From the NCBI GenBank assembly GCA_947648905.1, contig CANSPP010000007.1:11158-75157 (forward strand): a stretch of 64,000 nucleotides of DNA. Reading direction: 5' to 3'. A program made the translations under genes and the position numbers. The notes under the pieces were generated by a model. The model was not told where the DNA came from and ran no database searches. It saw nothing but the letters and a program-made list of their open reading frames with translations. This document shows, one piece after another, positions 4,900-47,892 of this stretch (position 1 is the stretch's first letter; each line of letters opens with the position of its first letter). Source of the stretch: an uncultured Clostridium sp. (GTDB lineage Bacteria > Bacillota > Clostridia > TANB77 > CAG-508).

Positions 4900-6978
4900 C
4901 TATAATGTTGACATAGTAGCAAATGAGTTTGACATACTTGTTAATCCTATAAATACTAATGGTATAATTAAGTATCCACAGAACATTGATACCATTGGTG
5001 CAAAACCAATTCCTTTTCCAATCATACCTTTTCTTTTTATTAATCTTTCATTTGATTCCTTACGTTTTTCTTTATAGTAATCTCTTTCTGAGTCTAATTC
5101 ATCAAAAGCATCTCTAATTGGTATTTTCTCTACTGCTGCTTGTAAGCTTTCCACTATTCTGATTAATGGTTGATATGAAATTTCTTCTTTCATAGCTTCT
5201 AGAGCTTCCCAAGCTCCTGCTTCATAGTTGTTCACACACTTAGTAATTGGTGCTCTGAATATGTTTGAATATCTTTCCAACCAATCTAGTATAATTTCAA
5301 CATTTACCCTTTCAATTCTCATAAGCATTAATATAATTGTTTGGAATTGCATTACTTCGTCTTCCATTTCTAGCTTTCTCATTATTACTTGGAACATTAG
5401 CAATCCAATTGGTGACATATATCCAATTAATGCAAATGCTATTGCTAGTAAAATTTCGAACCATTGTAAGTATTCGGTATTAATTATAGCTAATTTATCT
5501 TCTACAATTCTTTCTGCTATTACAGAAATTTCTTCGTCACCCATATCTTCTTCATAGTATTTTGACCTTCTAAATGCTCTTTCTACATCTGCTGTCGTAG
5601 TATCTAGTTTTCCTCTAAACATATCTAGAAAATAGTTGTCCATTTCTGTTACTTCCATAGCCTTTTTCTTGTCTTTATCTGTTAGTTCACCTATGATGTT
5701 ATAGTCTGTGGTCGGTTCTGTATATATGTAATTTATTGCAACTGAGTGCAGTTGTGCAAACAGTATAATTGATGCAATAAATGTTACTATACATATGGTT
5801 AGCCTATTTACATAGAGCCATTCCATTTTTAAGTGTGATGCAGAGTCTTTTAGCATTTGTTGATTTTTTTTGTATTCTTTTGTTCCTTCTTTTGGGATAA
5901 ATAAGTCTACAAATTTTTTGATTATTTTTTTACTATATAATTTTTGTTGCCATGGGTTTTCTGTGTTTCTTGTGTTCATTGCTGTTGACCCATTGTCTTT
6001 TAATTTTCTAACTAGTATGTAACACATAACAGTAATTAGTATTATTAGTATTTGAACTATCAATCCTGGTTTTCCTTCATACCAACTTTGCGTGAATGAG
6101 AAGTTTGATATTGACCAGCTTTTTAGTGGTTCTAGTAGTAATACTGGTACTACTGATATTACTGATAAACTTTGAAATACATAGTTTAATTTGTCTCTTT
6201 TCAAGATTTCTAGTTGCATTTCTTGTGTTATGTTGTTTATATTTTTTAGGTATAGTGATGCTCCGTCTACTTTTCTGTCACCAAATTCTTTTGTTAAGTA
6301 TGATACTCCAGCAAATTCTTTTAGATAACTGTTTGGAGCTATATCGTAATATTTTTCTAGTTCATTTTCAGGGTCATCAGATATTAATATTTCATATATC
6401 TTTTCACCTTGTCTTGATACCTCTTTTTCATCATCTTGTGATACTTGGTATATTGCTTCTTCTACCATATTAAATTCATGATATGCGTGCCTTATTTCTG
6501 AGAAGAATTCTATTTGTTGTTTTAGTATGTTATTGTCTATTTTATCTACTGAACCGTCTATAAATGTGTCTACCATAAATAGCTCAAATATTAGTAGAAT
6601 TGACATTAATAAATAGTTTGAAGATGTTATTGCTATTGTTACAATCATAAGAGGTACTATTATTGCTAGTGCAACTGAAAGGATTTTGGCTGTTCCTCTT
6701 CTTGTGTTGTATTCATCGTCTATATTGATTATTTCTAATCTTCTTCTTATTTTTAATACATATCTTTTTAAGAATGGTATTTTTATATATGTTAAGTATA
6801 ATTTTTGTAGTAAAACTTCAGCTGAAAATTTTCTATCTTTTGTTCCTTCTTGTAATTGTTTTATTTTTTTGTATTCTGATTTTTGCATTTTTTTAGATAA
6901 TATTACATAAACAAGTATTATTACCACAAGGGCTGCAACTGCTCCCCCCATTATATAGACTAACATTTGGTTGTTCAC
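4900..6978 (-). CDS. polytopic membrane platform protein, fused TadB/TadC (GspF-like)
   Basis: 692 aa with multiple hydrophobic segments. It sits immediately downstream of the CpaF-type ATPase, as in Tad loci. The call rests on position and topology, not on a recognised motif. Confidence 0.55.
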   Translation of the reverse strand: MNNQMLVYIMGGAVAALVVIILVYVILSKKMQKSEYKKIKQLQEGTKDRKFSAEVLLQKLYLTYIKIPFLKRYVLKIRRRLEIINIDDEYNTRRGTAKILSVALAIIVPLMIVTIAITSSNYLLMSILLIFELFMVDTFIDGSVDKIDNNILKQQIEFFSEIRHAYHEFNMVEEAIYQVSQDDEKEVSRQGEKIYEILISDDPENELEKYYDIAPNSYLKEFAGVSYLTKEFGDRKVDGASLYLKNINNITQEMQLEILKRDKLNYVFQSLSVISVVPVLLLEPLKSWSISNFSFTQSWYEGKPGLIVQILIILITVMCYILVRKLKDNGSTAMNTRNTENPWQQKLYSKKIIKKFVDLFIPKEGTKEYKKNQQMLKDSASHLKMEWLYVNRLTICIVTFIASIILFAQLHSVAINYIYTEPTTDYNIIGELTDKDKKKAMEVTEMDNYFLDMFRGKLDTTTADVERAFRRSKYYEEDMGDEEISVIAERIVEDKLAIINTEYLQWFEILLAIAFALIGYMSPIGLLMFQVIMRKLEMEDEVMQFQTIILMLMRIERVNVEIILDWLERYSNIFRAPITKCVNNYEAGAWEALEAMKEEISYQPLIRIVESLQAAVEKIPIRDAFDELDSERDYYKEKRKESNERLIKRKGMIGKGIGFAPMVSMFCGYLIIPLVFIGLTSMSNSFATMSTL

Positions 6979-11776: not shown

Positions 11777-12661
11777 TTAAAAGTTAATATCATTGTAATA
11801 TTTCTGTAATATTTTAGCCACCCCATCTTCATTATTGCTTGGCGCAATATCGTTTGCAACATCTGTAACTACACTTGTACTGCCACTCATAGCTATTCCT
11901 AGTCCTGCATTTTCAATCATTTTTTTGTCATTAACATTGTCACCTATTGCTATTACTTCTTCTGGCTTTATTTCTAATTTTTTTATTAAAAATTCTATGG
12001 CATTCCATTTATCAACATCTGCTAATGAAATTTCTGTATAGTAGTATTCTATTGGAACTTCTTCTGTTCCTTGTTTAATCATTTTTCTTGACATATGTGA
12101 TACATCTAAAACTTCTATATTGTCTATTTTTTTAAGTTTTCTTATTATTGAATTAAATACTATTTTATTTTCATCACATATTGTAATTTTTAAGAAATTT
12201 TCTTCTTGCATATTCTTTACATATTCATACATATTTTTAACAATACTAATATTAGTTTTTTTATTTTCTTCTTTTTTTAGATTTTCTTTATGATAATACA
12301 AAACATTGTGTTTTAGTGCTGTTGCAAGTATTGTTTTATCTGTATATACATTGTATGCTATACTATTTTCTTCACATATTTTTATTACTTCTAAAACTTT
12401 TTGTTTTGACATATTTTTTTTGTATATTATTTCGTCTTTTTCGATATCATAAGTAATAGCACCATTTCCTGCTATAAAATATTTTTCGCTACCTATTTCT
12501 TTTGCTATAGTTTTTATAGAATCTATTGGTCTACCTGATGCTATTATCACTTCTACTCCTTGTTCTATTATTTTTTTAATTGTATTTTTGGTGTTTTCTG
12601 TTACAACTCCATAACTATTTAACATTGTTCCATCTAAATCTATTGCTACAAATTTATACAT
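11777..12661 (-). CDS. Cof-type HAD-IIB phosphatase
   Basis: 294 aa. DLDGT motif at the N-terminus (VAIDLDGTMLN) and GDNVNDKKM near the C-terminus. Confidence 0.85.
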   Translation of the reverse strand: MYKFVAIDLDGTMLNSYGVVTENTKNTIKKIIEQGVEVIIASGRPIDSIKTIAKEIGSEKYFIAGNGAITYDIEKDEIIYKKNMSKQKVLEVIKICEENSIAYNVYTDKTILATALKHNVLYYHKENLKKEENKKTNISIVKNMYEYVKNMQEENFLKITICDENKIVFNSIIRKLKKIDNIEVLDVSHMSRKMIKQGTEEVPIEYYYTEISLADVDKWNAIEFLIKKLEIKPEEVIAIGDNVNDKKMIENAGLGIAMSGSTSVVTDVANDIAPSNNEDGVAKILQKYYNDINF

Positions 12662-12682
12662 ATCCTCTCATTTCCTCCTTAG

Positions 12683-12713
12683 TGTCCAATTGGGGACGTT
12701 TCTCTCTTGGACA
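12683..12713. repeat. GGGGACG-core palindromic repeat, subfamily A, solo copy
   Basis: TGTCCAATTGGGGACGTTTCTCTCTTGGACA, with stem TGTCCAA/TTGGACA. Sits just upstream of the Cof hydrolase RBS. Confidence 0.85.
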
Positions 12714-12885
12714 TTTGCCATATTTAAGATATTTTTCGACATTCTTATTATATATTTAAACTTTTTAAATTGCAATTTATTTTTGCTAAAAATTTCCTGT
12801 TTATTTTTTCTCTTTTTTGCAGATTATAGTATTAGAAAAAGCAAAGGTTTTTTCTATATGTAATATTACAGGAGGTGAAAAAACA

Positions 12886-13083
12886 ATGGCAAACTCAAGT
12901 AACAAAAAATTAGTTCCAGAAGCTATGACTGCTTTAGATAAATTCAAATATGAAGTAGCTAGTGAAGTTGGTGTTAACCTAAAAGACGGATATAATGGTG
13001 ATATATCTGCTAGAGACGCTGGAAAAATCGGTGGACAAATGGTTAAAAAAATGATAGAACAAGCTGAAAGAAACATGAAATAG
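12886..13083 (+). CDS. small acid-soluble spore protein, alpha/beta type
   Basis: ATG 12886 after an AGGAGGTG RBS. MANSSNKKLVPEAMTALDKFKYEVASEVGV...GGQMVKKMIEQAE is a typical alpha/beta SASP. Confidence 0.9.
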   Translation: MANSSNKKLVPEAMTALDKFKYEVASEVGVNLKDGYNGDISARDAGKIGGQMVKKMIEQAERNMK

Positions 13084-13147
13084 TTAAACTTTTAAATCAT
13101 TTTGCAGGAAGTTAAATTTTGTTTTTATATATTTTTAGAAATACATA

Positions 13148-13180
13148 AAGGCAGGATTTGATTTCCTGCCTTCTTTTTGT
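13148..13180. terminator. bidirectional rho-independent terminator (SASP / hpf)
   Basis: Stem AAGGCAGGA ... TCCTGCCTT followed by a T-run. Confidence 0.8.
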
Positions 13181-13190
13181 TTTTTACTTA

Positions 13191-13718
13191 TTATGCTTCT
13201 GGTTCTACTAAACCATAATTTTTTCCATCTTTTAATCTATGCACAACATTTACTTTTCCTGTTTCAACATTTATAAATGCTAGGAAATTGTGTGTTGGTT
13301 TTTCTTGTAGTTTTAAAACTGCATCTTCTGGTAACATTGGTTTTATTTCATAGTATGATGTTTTTACTATTTCATCTTTTATTTCAGTTGTTTGTTCATT
13401 TGCAACTTCCATTGTTCTTATTGATGCGTCTTTCATCATTTTTTCTCTTTTTGTTTTTGCTTTTCTTATTTGTCCTTCTAATATGTCTATATCTTTATCA
13501 ATAGATGCATACATATCTTTATCTTCTGTTACTGCTCTGTATTTTTCTCCATTTGCTGTAACATAGATTTCTGCTATTTGCTCATTTTTTTCTGTTCTTA
13601 AAGTAACTTCTGCCTCTGCATCTTCGAAATATTTATCTATTCTGTCTAATTTTCTTTCTACATAATCGTTGATTGCTTCTGTTATCTTTAGTTCCTTTCC
13701 TGTTATTTTTATTTTCAT
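13191..13718 (-). CDS. hpf: ribosome hibernation promoting factor (long HPF)
   Basis: 175 aa. S30AE N-domain (MKIKITGKELKITEAINDYVERK) plus a C-terminal dimerisation domain. Confidence 0.9.
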   Translation of the reverse strand: MKIKITGKELKITEAINDYVERKLDRIDKYFEDAEAEVTLRTEKNEQIAEIYVTANGEKYRAVTEDKDMYASIDKDIDILEGQIRKAKTKREKMMKDASIRTMEVANEQTTEIKDEIVKTSYYEIKPMLPEDAVLKLQEKPTHNFLAFINVETGKVNVVHRLKDGKNYGLVEPEA

Positions 13719-13812
13719 AAAAATCGCTCCTCTCTTTTTCGTTTTTCTACATAGATTATATTTTTATTATATACATTAATTTTTCTATTGTCAACTTTTA
13801 TTTTTTGTTTCG

Positions 13813-13900
13813 AAAATCTGCCAATGGGGACGGACCTTCGCATTTTCTTTTTTTAATATTAAAAATCTGCCAAAAAGGTCCGTCCCCATTGGCAGATTTT
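13813..13900. repeat. GGGGACG-core repeat, subfamily B, inverted pair (MITE-like)
   Basis: CTGCCAATGGGGACGGACC (13818..13836) and its exact reverse complement GGTCCGTCCCCATTGGCAG (13877..13895). The right copy is itself a hairpin (AAAATCTGCCA...TGGCAGATTTT) directly after the recO stop. Confidence 0.9.
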
Positions 13901-13912
13901 CAAAATAAATTT

Positions 13913-15820: not shown

Positions 15821-15851
15821 CCTGCCAAAAAGGTCCGTCCCCTTTGGCAGG
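15821..15851. repeat. GGGGACG-core repeat, subfamily B, solo copy (terminator position)
   Basis: CCTGCCAAAAAGGTCCGTCCCCTTTGGCAGG lies 14 nt downstream of the glycosyltransferase stop. A T-run follows it on the minus strand. Confidence 0.85.
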
Positions 15852-23865: not shown

Positions 23866-23912
23866 GGTCCGTACCAAAAATGTTTGTTGGGACAAAAAAG
23901 AAACGTCCCAAA
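23866..23912. repeat. degenerate copies of the repeat family
   Basis: AGGTCCGTACC is followed by TTGGGACAAAAAAGAAACGTCCCAAAA, with stem TGGGAC/GTCCCA. Sits downstream of folA. Confidence 0.5.
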
Positions 23913-23920
23913 ATATCCCT

Positions 23921-35370: not shown

Positions 35371-35410
35371 CCAATTTGGGACATTTGGGGACGTTTCCTT
35401 TTTGTCCAAT
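35371..35410. repeat. GGGGACG-core repeat, subfamily A, rearranged copy
   Basis: CCAATTTGGGACATTTGGGGACGTTTCCTTTTTGTCCAAT, between the prkC stop and the rsgA start. Confidence 0.75.
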
Positions 35411-35520
35411 TCTTGAACACATTTATTTACTTTTATTATATTTGAATTGTAGCATTATTATTTTATTTTGTCAAAATTTTAAGGGAACGAATAATCCATC
35501 GCTCCCTCCTTAATTAATTT

Positions 35521-37581: not shown

Positions 37582-38317
37582 TTATATGTTTTTTATGATT
37601 ATAACTGTTATATTGTCATAACCGCCGTTGTCATTTGCTTTTTTCACCAATTCTTTTGGTGCTTGTTCTATATCTTTTTTGGCTTCATTAAAGATTTCCT
37701 CTACTGATACTAAATTTGTCAGTCCATCTGAGTTCATTATTAATATATCATCTTTTAGAAATCCTTTTACCATAACATCTGGTTCTACAAATGCATTACA
37801 ACCGCAGTGCTTTCATTAACATATTTTTTTGTGGATGGTGCTGTGCTTCTTCTTGTGTTATTGTGCCATCTTTTACTAGTTTTTGTACATAACTGTGGTC
37901 TTGTGTTAGCTTTCTCATAAATTCTTTTCTAATTCTGTATATTCTGCTGTCTCCTACATGCCCAATAAATACTTTATTATTATATATTAAACAAATTTCT
38001 AATGTAGTACCCATTCCTTCTAATTCTTTGTTTTCTTTTGATTTTTCATATACTACCATATTTGCATATTCAATACTACTTCCAATTAGTTGAATTATGC
38101 TATCTCTATCTTTTTCTATTTCTTTAAAATTATTTTCTATGTAATTTTTGGCGGTTTGTATTGCTAGTTTACTTGCTACCTCTCCACCATTATAGCCTCC
38201 CATTCCGTCTGCTAACATATACAATTGTACTTCTGATAGGGAATCTGATATGTAAAAAGAATCTTGGTTTATTTCTCTTACTTTTCCTATGTCTGATTTT
38301 GCATAAGCTTTAATCAT
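37582..38317 (-). CDS. stp: PP2C-family Ser/Thr phosphatase Stp/PrpC, interrupted by a +1 frame break at CGG 37802..37804
   Basis: ATG 38317 (MIKAYAKSDIGKVREINQDSF). Track pieces are 37796..38374 and 37582..37773. CTG C GGT TGT restores ...NMLMKAL-GCNAFVEPDVMVKGF...SDGLTN. Total 244 aa. Confidence 0.9.
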
Positions 38318-38394
38318 ATATTCACCTCTTTTTCTTTCCATTTCCTTTATATCACAACTTTGTTTTTTTTGCAATATTTTCTATATAAATTTGA

Positions 38395-38467
38395 TGTCCA
38401 ATTGGGGACGTTTCCTTTCTGGACATTTTTAAAGTATGTCCAAGAAAGAAACGTCCCCAATTGGACA
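38395..38467. repeat. GGGGACG-core repeat, subfamily A, inverted pair
   Basis: TGTCCAATTGGGGACGTTTCCTTTCTGGACA (38395..38425) and TGTCCAAGAAAGAAACGTCCCCAATTGGACA (38437..38467) are separated by 11 nt. They lie in the divergent stp/mutS2 intergenic region. Confidence 0.9.
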
Positions 38468-38520
38468 TTTTCCCATTTTTCCTGTATAATAGTAGCAGTA
38501 TAAATTTAGGAGATTTTATT

Positions 38521-40920
38521 ATGAGCACATATTTAGATAAATTAGAATTTAATAAGATATTAGAAAATTTAGAAAACTACTGTATAACAATTCAAGGAAA
38601 GACCTTGGCAACCAGCTTAGTTCCTAGTAATGTAACAGATACAGTACGAATTTTATTAAGTGAAACTGAGGAAGCTGTAAACTTAATTTATAGAAATTCT
38701 ATACCAAGTTTTTATGAGATTAATCCAATTGATGTAGAACTAAAGAAACTTGAAAGTGGTATTTCTCTTTCTTGTAAAGAGCTTTTGAATTTAAACAAAA
38801 TTTTCAAAACAGCTTTTAATTTAAAAGAATATTTTGATAAAGATTTTTTAGATTTAAATGATTTTCCTATTTTGTCTTCTTTATTTGAAAAACTTTATTT
38901 TAATAAGAATATTATGGATAAAATTGATTCTTGTATATTAGAAGTGTCCAATAAAGAAACGTCCCCAATTGGACAAATTGATGATAAGGCTTCTTCCACT
39001 TTGCAATCTATTAGGAAGAAAAAGAGAAATTTAGAATTAGATATTCGTGAAAAGTTGAATAATATGGTTCATTCTTCTAGCTATTCTAAATATATTCAAG
39101 AGAACATTATTACTATTCGTAATGAACGTTTTGTTATACCTGTAAAAGAAGAGTACCGTTCACAGATAAAAGGATTTGTCCATGATATTTCAAATGCTGG
39201 TTCTACTGTGTTTATTGAGCCTATTGCAGTTTTTGAGATGAATAATGATTTAAGTAAATTGAAAATTGAAGAGGAAATTGAGATAGAGAAAATTTTGCAA
39301 GAACTTAGTTCTTTATTTGCGCCATATGTTGAAGAACTTCAGTCTTCTCTTGATTTAATTGGAAGATTAGACTTTATTTTTGCAAAAGCAAAATATTCTA
39401 AAGAGATTAAAGGAATTACTCCAAAAATTAATAGCAAAAAAGAAATAAATTTAATTAATGCAAGACATCCTCTAATTGCTAAAGAAAAAGCTGTTCCTAT
39501 TTCCGTAAATTTAGGAATTAATTTTTCTACACTTTTAATTACTGGACCAAATACTGGTGGTAAGACTGTCGCTTTAAAAACTGTTGGACTGCTTTGTTCT
39601 ATGGCTTGTAGTGGTCTTAATATTCCAGCAGATGAGAAGTCTAGTGTTTATGTTTTTTCTAATATTTTCTCAGATATTGGAGATGACCAAAGTATTTCAG
39701 ATTCTTTGAGTACTTTTTCTTCTCATATGATTAATCTTGTTGAAATATTAAAAAATGTAACTGAAAATTCTCTTGTTTTGGTTGATGAACTGGGCTCTGG
39801 TACTGACCCTATTGAAGGTGCAAATCTTGCTATTGCTATTTTGGCTCATTTAAAAAATGTTGGAGCTTTAACAATTGCAACTACTCATTATCAAGAGTTG
39901 AAACAATATGCACTTGTAACTGATGGTTTTGAAAATGCTTCTGTTGAGTTTGATGTTTCTACTTTAACTCCAACCTATAAGCTATTGGTTGGTATTCCTG
40001 GCAAGAGTAATGCTTTTGAAATTAGTAAAAATCTTGGATTGGACGATAACATTATTTCTGAGGCAAAATCTCTTATGACTTCTAACCAAGTTAATATAGA
40101 AGAATTGCTTAAAAATATCTACGATAACAAAGCTGAAATTGAAAAGGAAAAGGCTGAAATTGATAGTAAATTACAAAACATTTCAACTTTAGAAAGCAAA
40201 TTGCAAAGCGACTACGAAACTTTAAAAAATAAAGAACAAGAACTGATTTCTAATGCTAAAATTAAAGCCAGAAATATTTTATTAGACGCCAAAGACGAAG
40301 CAAATGAAATTATAAAGCAGATGAATACGCTCTCTTCTTCTGATAGAAAACTTGCAGATTCTATGAGAAATAAGCTAAATGAAAAAATCAAAAATACTAA
40401 TAACATAGAAGAAAATCACAATTCTTCAGATAAAGAAAGAGTTCAAACTCTTACACCAAATGACATCAAACTTAATATGGAAGTTTTTGTTAGATCTTTT
40501 GAAAAAAATGGAATTGTTGTTTCTCACATTTCTAAATCTAATGAAGTTCAAGTTCAAATTGGAATGCTTAAAACAAATATAAAATTAAGTGACTTGGAAT
40601 TAGTAAAAACAAATTCAGCAAAGAAAACTCCAAAAGTTCAAACTTCTGGATATGGTAGCTTTAATAAATCAAAAACTGTTAAATCTGAGGTTAATGTTAT
40701 TGGATTAAATGTTGAAGAAGCACTTTTCGTAGTTGATAAATTTTTAGATGACTGTAGTTTAGCTAAACTTAAAACTGTTCGCATTGTTCACGGCAAAGGT
40801 ACTGGCAAATTAAAAAACAGCATTCATCAATTTTTGAAAACTAATTCTCATATTGATTCTTATCGATTAGGCACTTATGGAGAAGGCGAATCTGGAGTTA
40901 CTGTTGTTACTCTCAAATAA
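38521..40920 (+). CDS. mutS2: endonuclease MutS2 (carries an in-frame repeat insertion)
   Basis: ATG 38521 after a TAGGAG RBS (MSTYLDKLEFNKILE). Walker A GPNTGGKT and a C-terminal Smr domain. The track's start at 38461 reads through an intergenic repeat and is rejected. Confidence 0.95.
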   Translation: MSTYLDKLEFNKILENLENYCITIQGKTLATSLVPSNVTDTVRILLSETEEAVNLIYRNSIPSFYEINPIDVELKKLESGISLSCKELLNLNKIFKTAFNLKEYFDKDFLDLNDFPILSSLFEKLYFNKNIMDKIDSCILEVSNKETSPIGQIDDKASSTLQSIRKKKRNLELDIREKLNNMVHSSSYSKYIQENIITIRNERFVIPVKEEYRSQIKGFVHDISNAGSTVFIEPIAVFEMNNDLSKLKIEEEIEIEKILQELSSLFAPYVEELQSSLDLIGRLDFIFAKAKYSKEIKGITPKINSKKEINLINARHPLIAKEKAVPISVNLGINFSTLLITGPNTGGKTVALKTVGLLCSMACSGLNIPADEKSSVYVFSNIFSDIGDDQSISDSLSTFSSHMINLVEILKNVTENSLVLVDELGSGTDPIEGANLAIAILAHLKNVGALTIATTHYQELKQYALVTDGFENASVEFDVSTLTPTYKLLVGIPGKSNAFEISKNLGLDDNIISEAKSLMTSNQVNIEELLKNIYDNKAEIEKEKAEIDSKLQNISTLESKLQSDYETLKNKEQELISNAKIKARNILLDAKDEANEIIKQMNTLSSSDRKLADSMRNKLNEKIKNTNNIEENHNSSDKERVQTLTPNDIKLNMEVFVRSFEKNGIVVSHISKSNEVQVQIGMLKTNIKLSDLELVKTNSAKKTPKVQTSGYGSFNKSKTVKSEVNVIGLNVEEALFVVDKFLDDCSLAKLKTVRIVHGKGTGKLKNSIHQFLKTNSHIDSYRLGTYGEGESGVTVVTLK
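38945..38975. repeat. GGGGACG-core repeat, subfamily A, copy inside the mutS2 coding sequence
   Basis: TGTCCAATAAAGAAACGTCCCCAATTGGACA is translated in frame as VSNKETSPIGQ. Confidence 0.9.
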
Positions 40921-44147: not shown

Positions 44148-44272
44148 ATTTCATCACCTTTTTTGTTTTTTAGCTTTTAGATTATACCATATTTACTAGC
44201 TAAAAACAAGTCTCCACTTCTTGCCAGTGGATACGGTCCTTCTTGCTATGCTATCAACAAAAGTAATAATGA

Positions 44273-44303
44273 TGTCCAAAAAGGAAACGTCCCCAATTGG
44301 ACA
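44273..44303. repeat. GGGGACG-core repeat, subfamily A, solo copy
   Basis: TGTCCAAAAAGGAAACGTCCCCAATTGGACA lies 5 nt downstream of the clpC stop. A degenerate B-like stretch, TTGCCAGTGGATACGGTCC, is at 44221..44239. Confidence 0.85.
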
Positions 44304-44307
44304 TTTC

Positions 44308-46777: not shown

Positions 46778-46806
46778 CTGCCATTGGGGACGGAGATTAA
46801 TGGCAG
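46778..46806. repeat. GGGGACG-core repeat, subfamily B, solo copy between mcsB and clpC
   Basis: CTGCCATTGGGGACGGAGATTAATGGCAG, with stem CTGCCATT/AATGGCAG. Confidence 0.85.
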
Positions 46807-47828: not shown

Positions 47829-47891
47829 CCTGCCATGGGGGACGGTCCTTTTTAGCAGATTTCTGCCATTAAGGTCCGTCCCTGTTGGCAG
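47829..47891. repeat. GGGGACG-core repeat, subfamily B, inverted pair between mcsA and mcsB
   Basis: CCTGCCATGGGGGACGGTCCTTTTTAGCAG and CTGCCATTAAGGTCCGTCCCTGTTGGCAG. The first copy supplies the ATG used by the ORF track for mcsB. Confidence 0.85.
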
Positions 47892-47892
47892 A

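Follow-up and report, generated by a model that had tools for sequence, protein, structure and literature searches.

Rickettsia palindromic elements (RPE), reportedly described by Ogata et al. in 2000, are palindromic repeats that sit inside protein-coding genes. RPE-1 measures 100-150 nt (30-50 residues), and the coding sequences of Rickettsia carry dozens of insertions. Among the repetitive extragenic palindromic sequences (REPs), those of the GTAG/CGTC type were surveyed by Di Nocera, De Gregorio & Rocco 2013 (PMC3733652), who catalogued some of them within open reading frames (ORFs) and equated RPE-4 and RPE-6 with CGTC REPs. In a further group, subclass 2.1 of the TIRYT systems, the terminal inverted repeat (TIR) carries the motif GGGGWSAS (Quentin et al. 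2018, PMC6006769). Here we describe a 31-nt palindromic repeat unit that lies within mutS2, the gene of an endonuclease MutS2/RqcU homolog, in a 64,000-nt stretch of DNA from an uncultured Clostridium sp. (contig CANSPP010000007.1, positions 11,158 to 75,157). This whole stretch is called the window below, and positions without a locus name are window positions.

A first interpretation made from the DNA letters without database searches (the sequence-only reading) had proposed that the unit sits in frame within mutS2. This is confirmed: the reading frame runs through the unit as ...CILE-VSNKETSPIG-QIDDKASS. We compared the DNA of the filled alleles, found in the window and in loci L081, L082 and L083, with that of empty alleles (L084, L085, L001, L065 and others). 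Filled alleles read TTAGA-AGTGTCC...TTGGACAA-ATTGAT where empty alleles read TTAGA-TGAAAATTTA-ATTGAT. Anchored on the flanks, the interval counts 31 nt in the window and in L081-L083 and 7 nt in 13 relatives (L084, L085, L001, L065 and nine more). At the protein level, the new codons V142-G151 (38944-38973) stand in place of two codons (E-N or E-D in orthologs), with E141 and Q152 as altered codons on either side, and the net gain from the insert is 8 residues (24 nt). The proposal that about 10 residues had been added without loss of frame is therefore correct as to the frame and too large as to the size, since ten residues replace two. The flanks were said to follow the usual MutS2 pattern, but the terminal G assigned to 'G-x-I-x-D-x-AS' is encoded by the repeat.

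Three database proteins share the segment: P0001 (90% identity) with VSNKETSPIG, and P0002 and P0008 (both 88%) with VSKKETSPIG and VSKKETSPIE, respectively. Proteins P0003-P0013 (85-87% identity, P0008 apart) and all more distant orthologs read ...CILDEN--------LIDDKAS... instead. In total, the 8 residues are absent from 91 of the 94 aligned MutS2 proteins, including 37 from Bacillaceae, and the B. subtilis MutS2 of PDB entries 8qpp and 7qv3 is without them. Thus the peptide is missing where the DNA repeat is missing, and the insertion reading stands. Based on these alignments, the mutS2 segment is a true lineage-specific insertion.

The inserted unit consists of a perfect 8-bp stem (TGTCCAAT/ATTGGACA) and a 15-nt loop (AAAGAAACGTCCCCA), and folds as RNA at -8.1 kcal/mol (z = -2.96). 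With up to 3 mismatches, the 31-mer is found at five sites of the window, 12683(-), 38395(-), 38437(+), 38945(+) and 44273(+), while 100 dinucleotide shuffles gave a chance expectation of none. Its 15-nt core has five exact occurrences in the window compared to 0.04 expected. Read from this copy's sequence, five of the six frames are free of stop codons, so that an open frame through the unit is unremarkable.

The gene that received the unit is intact. It starts at ATG 38521, preceded by a GGAG ribosome-binding site and in agreement with the N-terminus of orthologs, and its stop codon is at 40918-40920. The product matches B. subtilis MutS2 (E = 6.5e-175) and shows the domain order core/lever, clamp, ABC ATPase, KOW and Smr, as taken from PMC10897456, with intact Walker A and Smr motifs. 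The ratio of nonsynonymous to synonymous divergence (dN/dS) lies at 0.11-0.14 whether filled alleles are compared with one another or with empty ones; accordingly mutS2 stayed functional after the insertion and, on this measure, is under purifying selection despite the insert. Since the synonymous divergence (dS) among filled alleles reaches 0.17-0.57, the insertion is old.

Structure modelling, which the sequence-only reading had put forward as a check for a surface loop, places the insert in a predicted exposed coil. A first AlphaFold model based on 25 close sequences was unusable, with a predicted local distance difference test score (pLDDT) of 52, and was replaced by one based on the 94-sequence alignment that includes Bacillus MutS2. 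The resulting model has a mean pLDDT of 78.9, mostly above 90 in the N-terminal domain, and matches the MutS2 structures 7qv3, 9kce and 7vuf (B. subtilis, T. maritima and T. thermophilus). The sole dip in confidence of the N-terminal core/lever domain falls on the block 141-150 (mean pLDDT 54, residues 144-146 below 50). DSSP assigns coil to the insert, which follows helix 129-138 and precedes the long helix 159-183 leading to the clamp, and its peptide VSNKETSPIG is hydrophilic and has a proline and a glycine. The model thus predicts an exposed surface loop just before the long lever helix.

The insert is also retained in natural populations. Filled alleles with identical junctions are present in four independent assemblies from different sources, and every 31-mer sampled from 38600-39300 occurs in at least 20 metagenome runs (mouse, rat and faeces; 9 studies). 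One contig crosses the insert with 0 differences in each of four DNA runs. Contigs from two RNA-labelled runs, X25 (4998 nt) and X27 (759 nt, a variant strain), cross it ungapped, and no joints that skip the insert were seen in either. As assembled contigs in which DNA carry-over is possible, these show retention of the insert and not its translation.

Once in the gene, the unit seems to have changed as its surroundings did. The stem is perfect in the window copy, while the insert of L081 has one change (TCC to TCA), that of L082 two (TCT and AAG) and that of L083 three (plus GGA to GAA), and all these substitutions break or weaken the stem. Identity of the insert across filled alleles is 28-30 of 31 nt, similar to that of the 200-nt flanks (88-92%). 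Because the insert is no more alike than its flanks and the stems are broken, it acts as ordinary coding sequence whose hairpin is not preserved. Over the first ~600 nt of mutS2 the window is nearer to all three other filled alleles (88-92%) than to empty ones (83-85%), and this similarity of the 5′ part of the gene, together with the identical junctions, argues for a single origin.

We next describe the repeat family, for which about 300 units were examined in the window, in 85 loci of relatives and in 115 metagenome loci. In the window there are about 13 units, which fall into at least two subfamilies; 12 are intergenic and one is in mutS2. Around 85% of the window is in long ORFs and the 12 units lie within the remaining ~15%. 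Subfamily A has the stem TGTCCAA and subfamily B the stem CTGCCAA, and a loop of the form ..AAGGNNNCGTCCCC.. is common to both. In the window 60% of the CGTCCC sites fall in the loop of a hairpin whose stem is perfect over at least 6 bp, compared to 40% in the relatives' loci, which were picked via mutS2 and not via the repeat, and 3% in shuffled sequence. The stems vary by species (TTGCCAA, GGGATTT, TGATGA, ATGATTTT and others) and the loop motif persists, with CGTCCC(C) placed within the loop 1-5 nt ahead of the 3′ arm. No conserved unpaired head (GTAG/CGTC) outside the stem was found in the units examined. Judged by these sequence features, the repeat is a REP/TIR-like hairpin of uncultured gut Clostridia in which the stem varies and the CGTCCCC loop is conserved.

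The family is abundant. Unit depth is about 130 times the single-copy depth, around 70 contigs per metagenome hold a copy, and a metagenome scan returned 124 further family-A copies. In the metagenome loci we found 35 head-to-head pairs; such pairs, with their TGTCCAATTGGGGACG ends outward, enclose 0-340 nt of variable AT-rich DNA. Some of the resulting elements recur at unrelated flanks, resembling MITEs (miniature transposable elements with inverted repeats). For example, a 224-nt element is 100% identical at L098 688-911 and L177 3424-3647, which have unrelated flanks, and further ones recur with 86-88% and 92% identity (L168/L184/L149 and L159/L199, respectively). These unit-bounded elements are 158-290 nt long, and their interiors are otherwise highly variable between elements.

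Orthologous intergenic sites contain 0, 1, 2 or 3 units depending on the species. The same range was seen when the mcsA/mcsB and mcsB/clpC spacers were compared across L001, L065, L084, L002, L043, L049 and L039, and in each genome the stems of the units in these clpC-operon spacers are those of its own subfamily. The pattern points to recurrent insertion into the same spots of the clpC operon or to concerted evolution there. Two regulatory roles were considered and rejected. A 5′-UTR-like element always facing the downstream gene one way does not fit, as both orientations are common (55 vs 41 for co-directional genes), and a CtsR operator for the clpC-operon copies was set aside in view of its consensus, a GGTCAAA direct repeat.

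Rfam searches, at gathering thresholds over the whole window and permissively over 38300-39100, gave no bacterial RNA family; the only matches were generic long-hairpin plant miRNA models on the intergenic dimer. A full-text literature search for the core motif returned nothing relevant. The metagenome scan with the 18-mer AACGTCCCCAATTGGACA also gave about 29 unrelated matches, around 15 of them on high-GC contigs. Those within long ORFs share the context CCCCAACGTCCCCAATTGGACA and are not family members; matches of this type are on contigs L099, L102, L129, L134, L143, L145, L151, L164, L179, L181 and L196.

Relatives have ORFs between inverted units that code for Y1 HUH proteins (Pfam Y1_Tnp, E = 2e-15). 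Among NCBIfam models, the REP-associated tyrosine transposase (RAYT) NF047646 scores highest, with 65.6 bits that are under the cut-off of 80. Of seven such genes, five (L001, L065, L192, L052 and L063) are bounded 5′ by a ..GGGGACG.. unit and 3′ by a ..CGTCCCC.. unit, and in L192 the flanks are exactly family-A units. The flank motif GGGGACGT/GGGGACGG fits GGGGWSAS at 6 of 8 positions. For the C-terminal part of the Y1 proteins, Pfam gave neither an HTH nor a DnaA_C domain at E <= 0.01; the last ~100 residues give a weak sigma-factor-like match (E = 0.0015). By analogy, a Y1 HUH transposase (IS200-like, of the RAYT/TIRYT type) probably mobilises the family in trans; we infer that it moves the units because this is what is known of REP/RAYT and IS200/IS605 systems.

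Two neighbouring observations concern the Y1 genes. In L001, L065 and L192 the gene adjoins radA. At L047 (~6340-6600), a Y1 homolog with 43% identity to that of L001 is flanked by a tandem array of another motif, GGGGTCGGTTC(C/T)GTTTT(T/C)G(C/G)CT, in place of CGTCCCC hairpins.

A search for other in-frame coding copies, also suggested in the sequence-only reading, yielded a single further convincing one among the ~300 units, in a rimO-like gene of L041 (Table 1). Intragenic counts come from unfiltered scans, as a purine-richness filter wrongly dropped mutS2 (purine fraction 0.53). The rimO unit lies in the linker between the N-terminal and radical-SAM domains, where the ortholog of L060 is about 20-29 residues shorter. 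Candidates at L065, L051, L064, L043, L111, L120 and L199 were rejected as lying in antisense junk ORFs or upstream of real starts. Coding insertions are thus rare exceptions in this repeat family.

The units also affect annotation. Since they contain ATG and TTG codons and open frames, predicted N-termini are drawn out into them by gene callers. A mechanical call of the window's mutS2 begins at TTG 38461, inside the upstream unit, and so adds 38461-38520 as a spurious N-terminal extension of 20 residues. The entry P0001 in the database (817 aa) shares this extension, being called 18-20 residues too long. In L142 (~1062-1095), a 435-aa flavoprotein ORF begins MSQKETSPIGH, with its ATG and first ten codons coming from the unit ATGTCCCAAAAAGAAACGTCCCCAATTGGACA, which is read in the same frame as the mutS2 unit; either the unit donates the start codon or the annotated start is wrong. 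At the assembly level, short-read assemblers break contigs at these repeats.

Table 1. Positions of the mutS2 insert, of further repeat units and of the associated transposase genes (window positions unless a locus is named)
Feature	Position	Strand	Remarks
mutS2 (endonuclease MutS2/RqcU homolog), 799 aa, intact	38521-40920	+	Homology, model, dN/dS
Intragenic 31-nt palindromic repeat unit TGTCCAATAAAGAAACGTCCCCAATTGGACA	38945-38975	+	Inside mutS2 reading frame
Replaced segment, 34 nt in place of 10 nt (TGAAAATTTA)	38943-38976	+	Net +24 nt; DNA alignment
Family-A inverted dimer, stp/mutS2 divergent spacer	38394-38426 and 38436-38468	- and +	Folds at -51 kcal/mol as one strand (computed over 38390-38472)
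Family-A unit, intergenic	12683-12713	-	21 nt upstream of start of ORF 11777-12661
Family-A unit, intergenic	44272-44304	+	Directly 3′ of clpC stop codon
Family-B inverted pair, intergenic	13804-13909		Stem CTGCCAA, loop ..GGTCCGTCCCC..
Family-B unit, intergenic	15821-15851	+	
Family-B unit, mcsB/clpC spacer	46778-46806	-	0, 1, 2 or 3 units there in relatives
Family-B inverted pair, mcsA/mcsB spacer	47830-47892		Site empty in L002 and L043
Degenerate unit (GGGACATTTGGGGACGTTTCCTTTTTGTCC), rsgA/prkC spacer	35378-35411	-	
Degenerate unit (GGACAAAAAAGAAACGTCCCAAAATATCCC), intergenic	23890-23919	+	
Intragenic unit (AAGGTTCCTTTTTGGGACGGAGGAAAAAAGGAACCTT), 37 nt, rimO-like methylthiotransferase	L041 1721-1757	- (coding strand)	In frame, opposite orientation
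Y1 transposase gene	L001 8387-9398		
Y1 transposase gene	L065 8353-9250		
Y1 transposase gene	L192 155-1219		
Y1 transposase gene	L052 12367-13271		
Y1 transposase gene	L063 ~12400-13400		

A separate observation concerns stp, the PP2C phosphatase gene upstream of prkC (37582-38317, minus strand), which is split by an extra C at ~37796-37805. The break reads GCA CTG C GGT TGT AAT; the 0 frame has the rare codon CGG with a stop two codons later, and the coding of the C-terminal 63 residues carries on in the +1 frame. L084, L002 and L037 share this extra C, while 13 other relatives keep the frame. Either a programmed +1 frameshift or a pseudogene, recurrent or ancient, could explain the break.

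Taken together, we favour, with a probability of roughly 80%, an explanation in which a solo REP/TIR-like unit entered mutS2 and persists there as a tolerated passenger, the family probably being mobilised in trans by a Y1 transposase. An intergenic hairpin unit would have entered the coding sequence in the ancestor of a small sub-lineage, the Y1 HUH enzyme acting on the single-stranded hairpin DNA of units. It may have arrived with a small target deletion, or a doublet or otherwise frame-breaking insertion may have been trimmed later. The surviving allele is one in which 7-10 target bases were lost, the net length change was a multiple of three and the frame was kept. The stop-free unit encodes VSNKETSPIG and is predicted to enlarge an exposed turn of the core/lever domain before the long lever helix. 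MutS2 tolerates the 8 extra residues, and the insert has been passed on and drifts as coding sequence, with the hairpin decaying in sister lineages. The insert is most likely a passenger without a function of its own.

Several points weigh against this explanation. There is no Y1 transposase gene within the 64-kb window. A 987-nt contig, 84% identical to the gene of L001, occurs at the depth of the window genome in three of four metagenomes that contain this genome (19.4, 11 and 64.6 compared to 17.1, 11.7 and 76.2 for the window), and it is this depth matching that suggests a transposase in the same genome; in the fourth metagenome (X12) the Y1 gene is cleanly absent, with an 882-nt skip. Solo units may be immobile. 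Neither a target-site duplication nor a conserved target motif emerged from the 30 pairs inspected or from the mutS2 copy. Moreover, a 31-nt unit produced a net change of 24 nt with target bases replaced; the junctions are therefore not explained by simple cut-and-paste of a single unit. The filled alleles do not form a clade in neighbour-joining trees of the whole gene (24 of 100 and 103 of 500 bootstraps), and recombination or short internal branches must be invoked to explain this. The insert and the coding DNA around it are conserved to a similar degree, so selection on the peptide may act as well. Finally, the surface exposure of the insert is predicted from pLDDT and secondary structure.

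The main rival, which we regard as unlikely, is local templated copying from the unit 478 nt upstream (38437-38467), by template switching, by gene conversion or by microhomology-mediated repair as the hairpin-rich region was replicated, with no direct part for a transposase. The + unit of the spacer dimer is the nearest copy and also the most similar one (1 mismatch) and has the same orientation, yet this likeness may merely reflect subfamily identity. Target bases are replaced and the target is not duplicated, as templated repair would give, but no clear microhomology was identified at the junctions. The presence of 0-3 units per intergenic site suggests local duplication as well. Nonetheless, local copying does not account for the reach of the family to unrelated loci, as seen in the identical 224-nt element at two sites, or for the second intragenic copy in another gene and species.

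A broader alternative, which we hold to be improbable, combines three proposals: the family would be an undescribed repeat/Y1 system, with the loop ..GGNNNCGTCCCC.. as recognition determinant and lineage-specific stems that change with the transposase; the units at operon junctions (mcsA/mcsB/clpC, upstream of mutS2) would be domesticated regulators; and the mutS2 copy would be selected as a functional loop or as a regulatory hairpin of a ribosome-rescue ATPase. Exaptation of the mutS2 copy by itself has a slimmer chance still. Here the loop would be useful to MutS2, for example in contacting the ribosome or a partner, or the hairpin would serve as a pause, RNase or transposase-binding site. 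The insert was indeed kept over a synonymous divergence of 0.4-0.57 with just 1-3 changes per 31 nt in a gene under purifying selection, and genes for repair and replication are recurrent sites of intragenic REPs according to Di Nocera et al. 2013 (PMC3733652). However, it is no more conserved than the flanking coding DNA, its stem is disrupted in three of four lineages so that no RNA or DNA structure is conserved, and it is variable at two of its ten residues (N/K and G/E). Every other MutS2 works without such a loop, and low model confidence is what flexible loops typically show. A functional loop would have implications for the way in which MutS2 engages collided ribosomes; nothing in our data requires such a function.

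The two remaining rivals are refuted. An ancestral MutS2 segment lost in most lineages, with intergenic repeats alike by chance or derived from it, draws on the poorly resolved gene tree and on nothing else, and conflicts with its absence from 91 of 94 orthologs including Bacillus, with the D-E-N/D context that near and distant empty alleles share as the ancestral state, with the spread of the family in species whose mutS2 is empty and with the zero chance matches expected. An assembly artefact, in which a unit was mis-joined into mutS2, might be expected of short-read assemblers at these repeats, but the same junctions recur in the four independent assemblies, exact words occur in the many runs and studies listed above, single contigs cross without differences and the reading frame is preserved.

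The mutS2 insert is a clean, datable case in which a selfish hairpin repeat has given a conserved housekeeping enzyme new protein sequence, and it lies outside the classic examples from Rickettsia and Proteobacteria. It extends the repeat families associated with RAYT and TIRYT proteins, and their occasional coding insertions, to the uncultured low-GC Clostridia of the rodent gut.

The family has the traits of REPs and bacterial interspersed mosaic elements (BIMEs), as a palindrome of 20-40 nt (31 nt with an 8-bp stem) with a high copy number, a mostly extragenic location and inverted dimers. Its resemblance to intragenic REPs (PMC3733652) is close: palindromes of ~30 nt, overwhelmingly intergenic, occur as singles or inverted dimers between co-directional genes, and a few in-frame ORF copies, notably in genes for DNA repair or replication, lengthen the protein by ~10 residues per unit. 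The differences from GTAG/CGTC REPs lie in the architecture, with CGTCCC(C) in the loop here instead of in an unpaired 5′ head, a loop of 13-17 nt compared to 4-5 nt and stems that vary widely between subfamilies, and in the host, a low-GC uncultured member of the Clostridia compared to Proteobacteria. In addition, described CGTC REPs have no associated transposase, whereas the units here flank Y1 genes.

Like the TIRYT systems (PMC6006769), the family combines a Y1_Tnp protein that has a C-terminal extension with inverted, partly self-complementary flanking repeats and a GGGG-rich motif, and the same repeats are moderately abundant elsewhere in the genome as singles, dimers and clusters. Unlike the GGGGWSAS of TIRYT, the motif here is GGGGACG(T/G). 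We found no description in the literature of in-frame coding copies of TIRYT repeats. The layout of a Y1 gene with inverted flanking units, seen in relatives only, matches that of REPtrons/TIRtrons (PMC3733652) and of subclass 2.1 (PMC6006769). As in REPIN/RAYT systems (Bertels & Rainey 2011, PMC3116915; Nunvar et al. 2010, PMC2817692), inverted doublets form long hairpins, singlets occur too, and a single-copy Y1 transposase gene is flanked by repeats. The protein differs from RAYTs in its sub-threshold NF047646 score, and the doublets differ from REPINs in having 0-340 nt of unrelated AT-rich DNA between units instead of a fixed spacing and in having no GTAG head. Classical DDE-type MITEs differ as well, since the TIR-like ends here come without a consistent direct duplication (30 pairs and the mutS2 copy).

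The sequence-only reading had drawn an analogy with Rickettsia palindromic elements, and this holds for the mode of action and fails for family membership. As with RPE, a palindromic mobile repeat lies in frame in a conserved housekeeping protein, is absent from orthologs, leaves the gene functional and is tolerated at an apparently surface-exposed site. Unlike RPE-1, it is a single 31-nt unit with a net effect of 8 residues, and intragenic copies number two among ~300 units. The host, a low-GC member of the Clostridia, and an apparently unrelated sequence are further differences from RPE, and the architecture sets the family apart from CGTC REPs including RPE-4 and RPE-6. Events of this mode are already established, as intragenic REPs (frequently within repair genes) and as RPEs of Rickettsia. 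What differs here is the sequence, the architecture of conserved loop and variable stem, the rodent-gut Clostridia host and the association with a TIRYT-like transposase.

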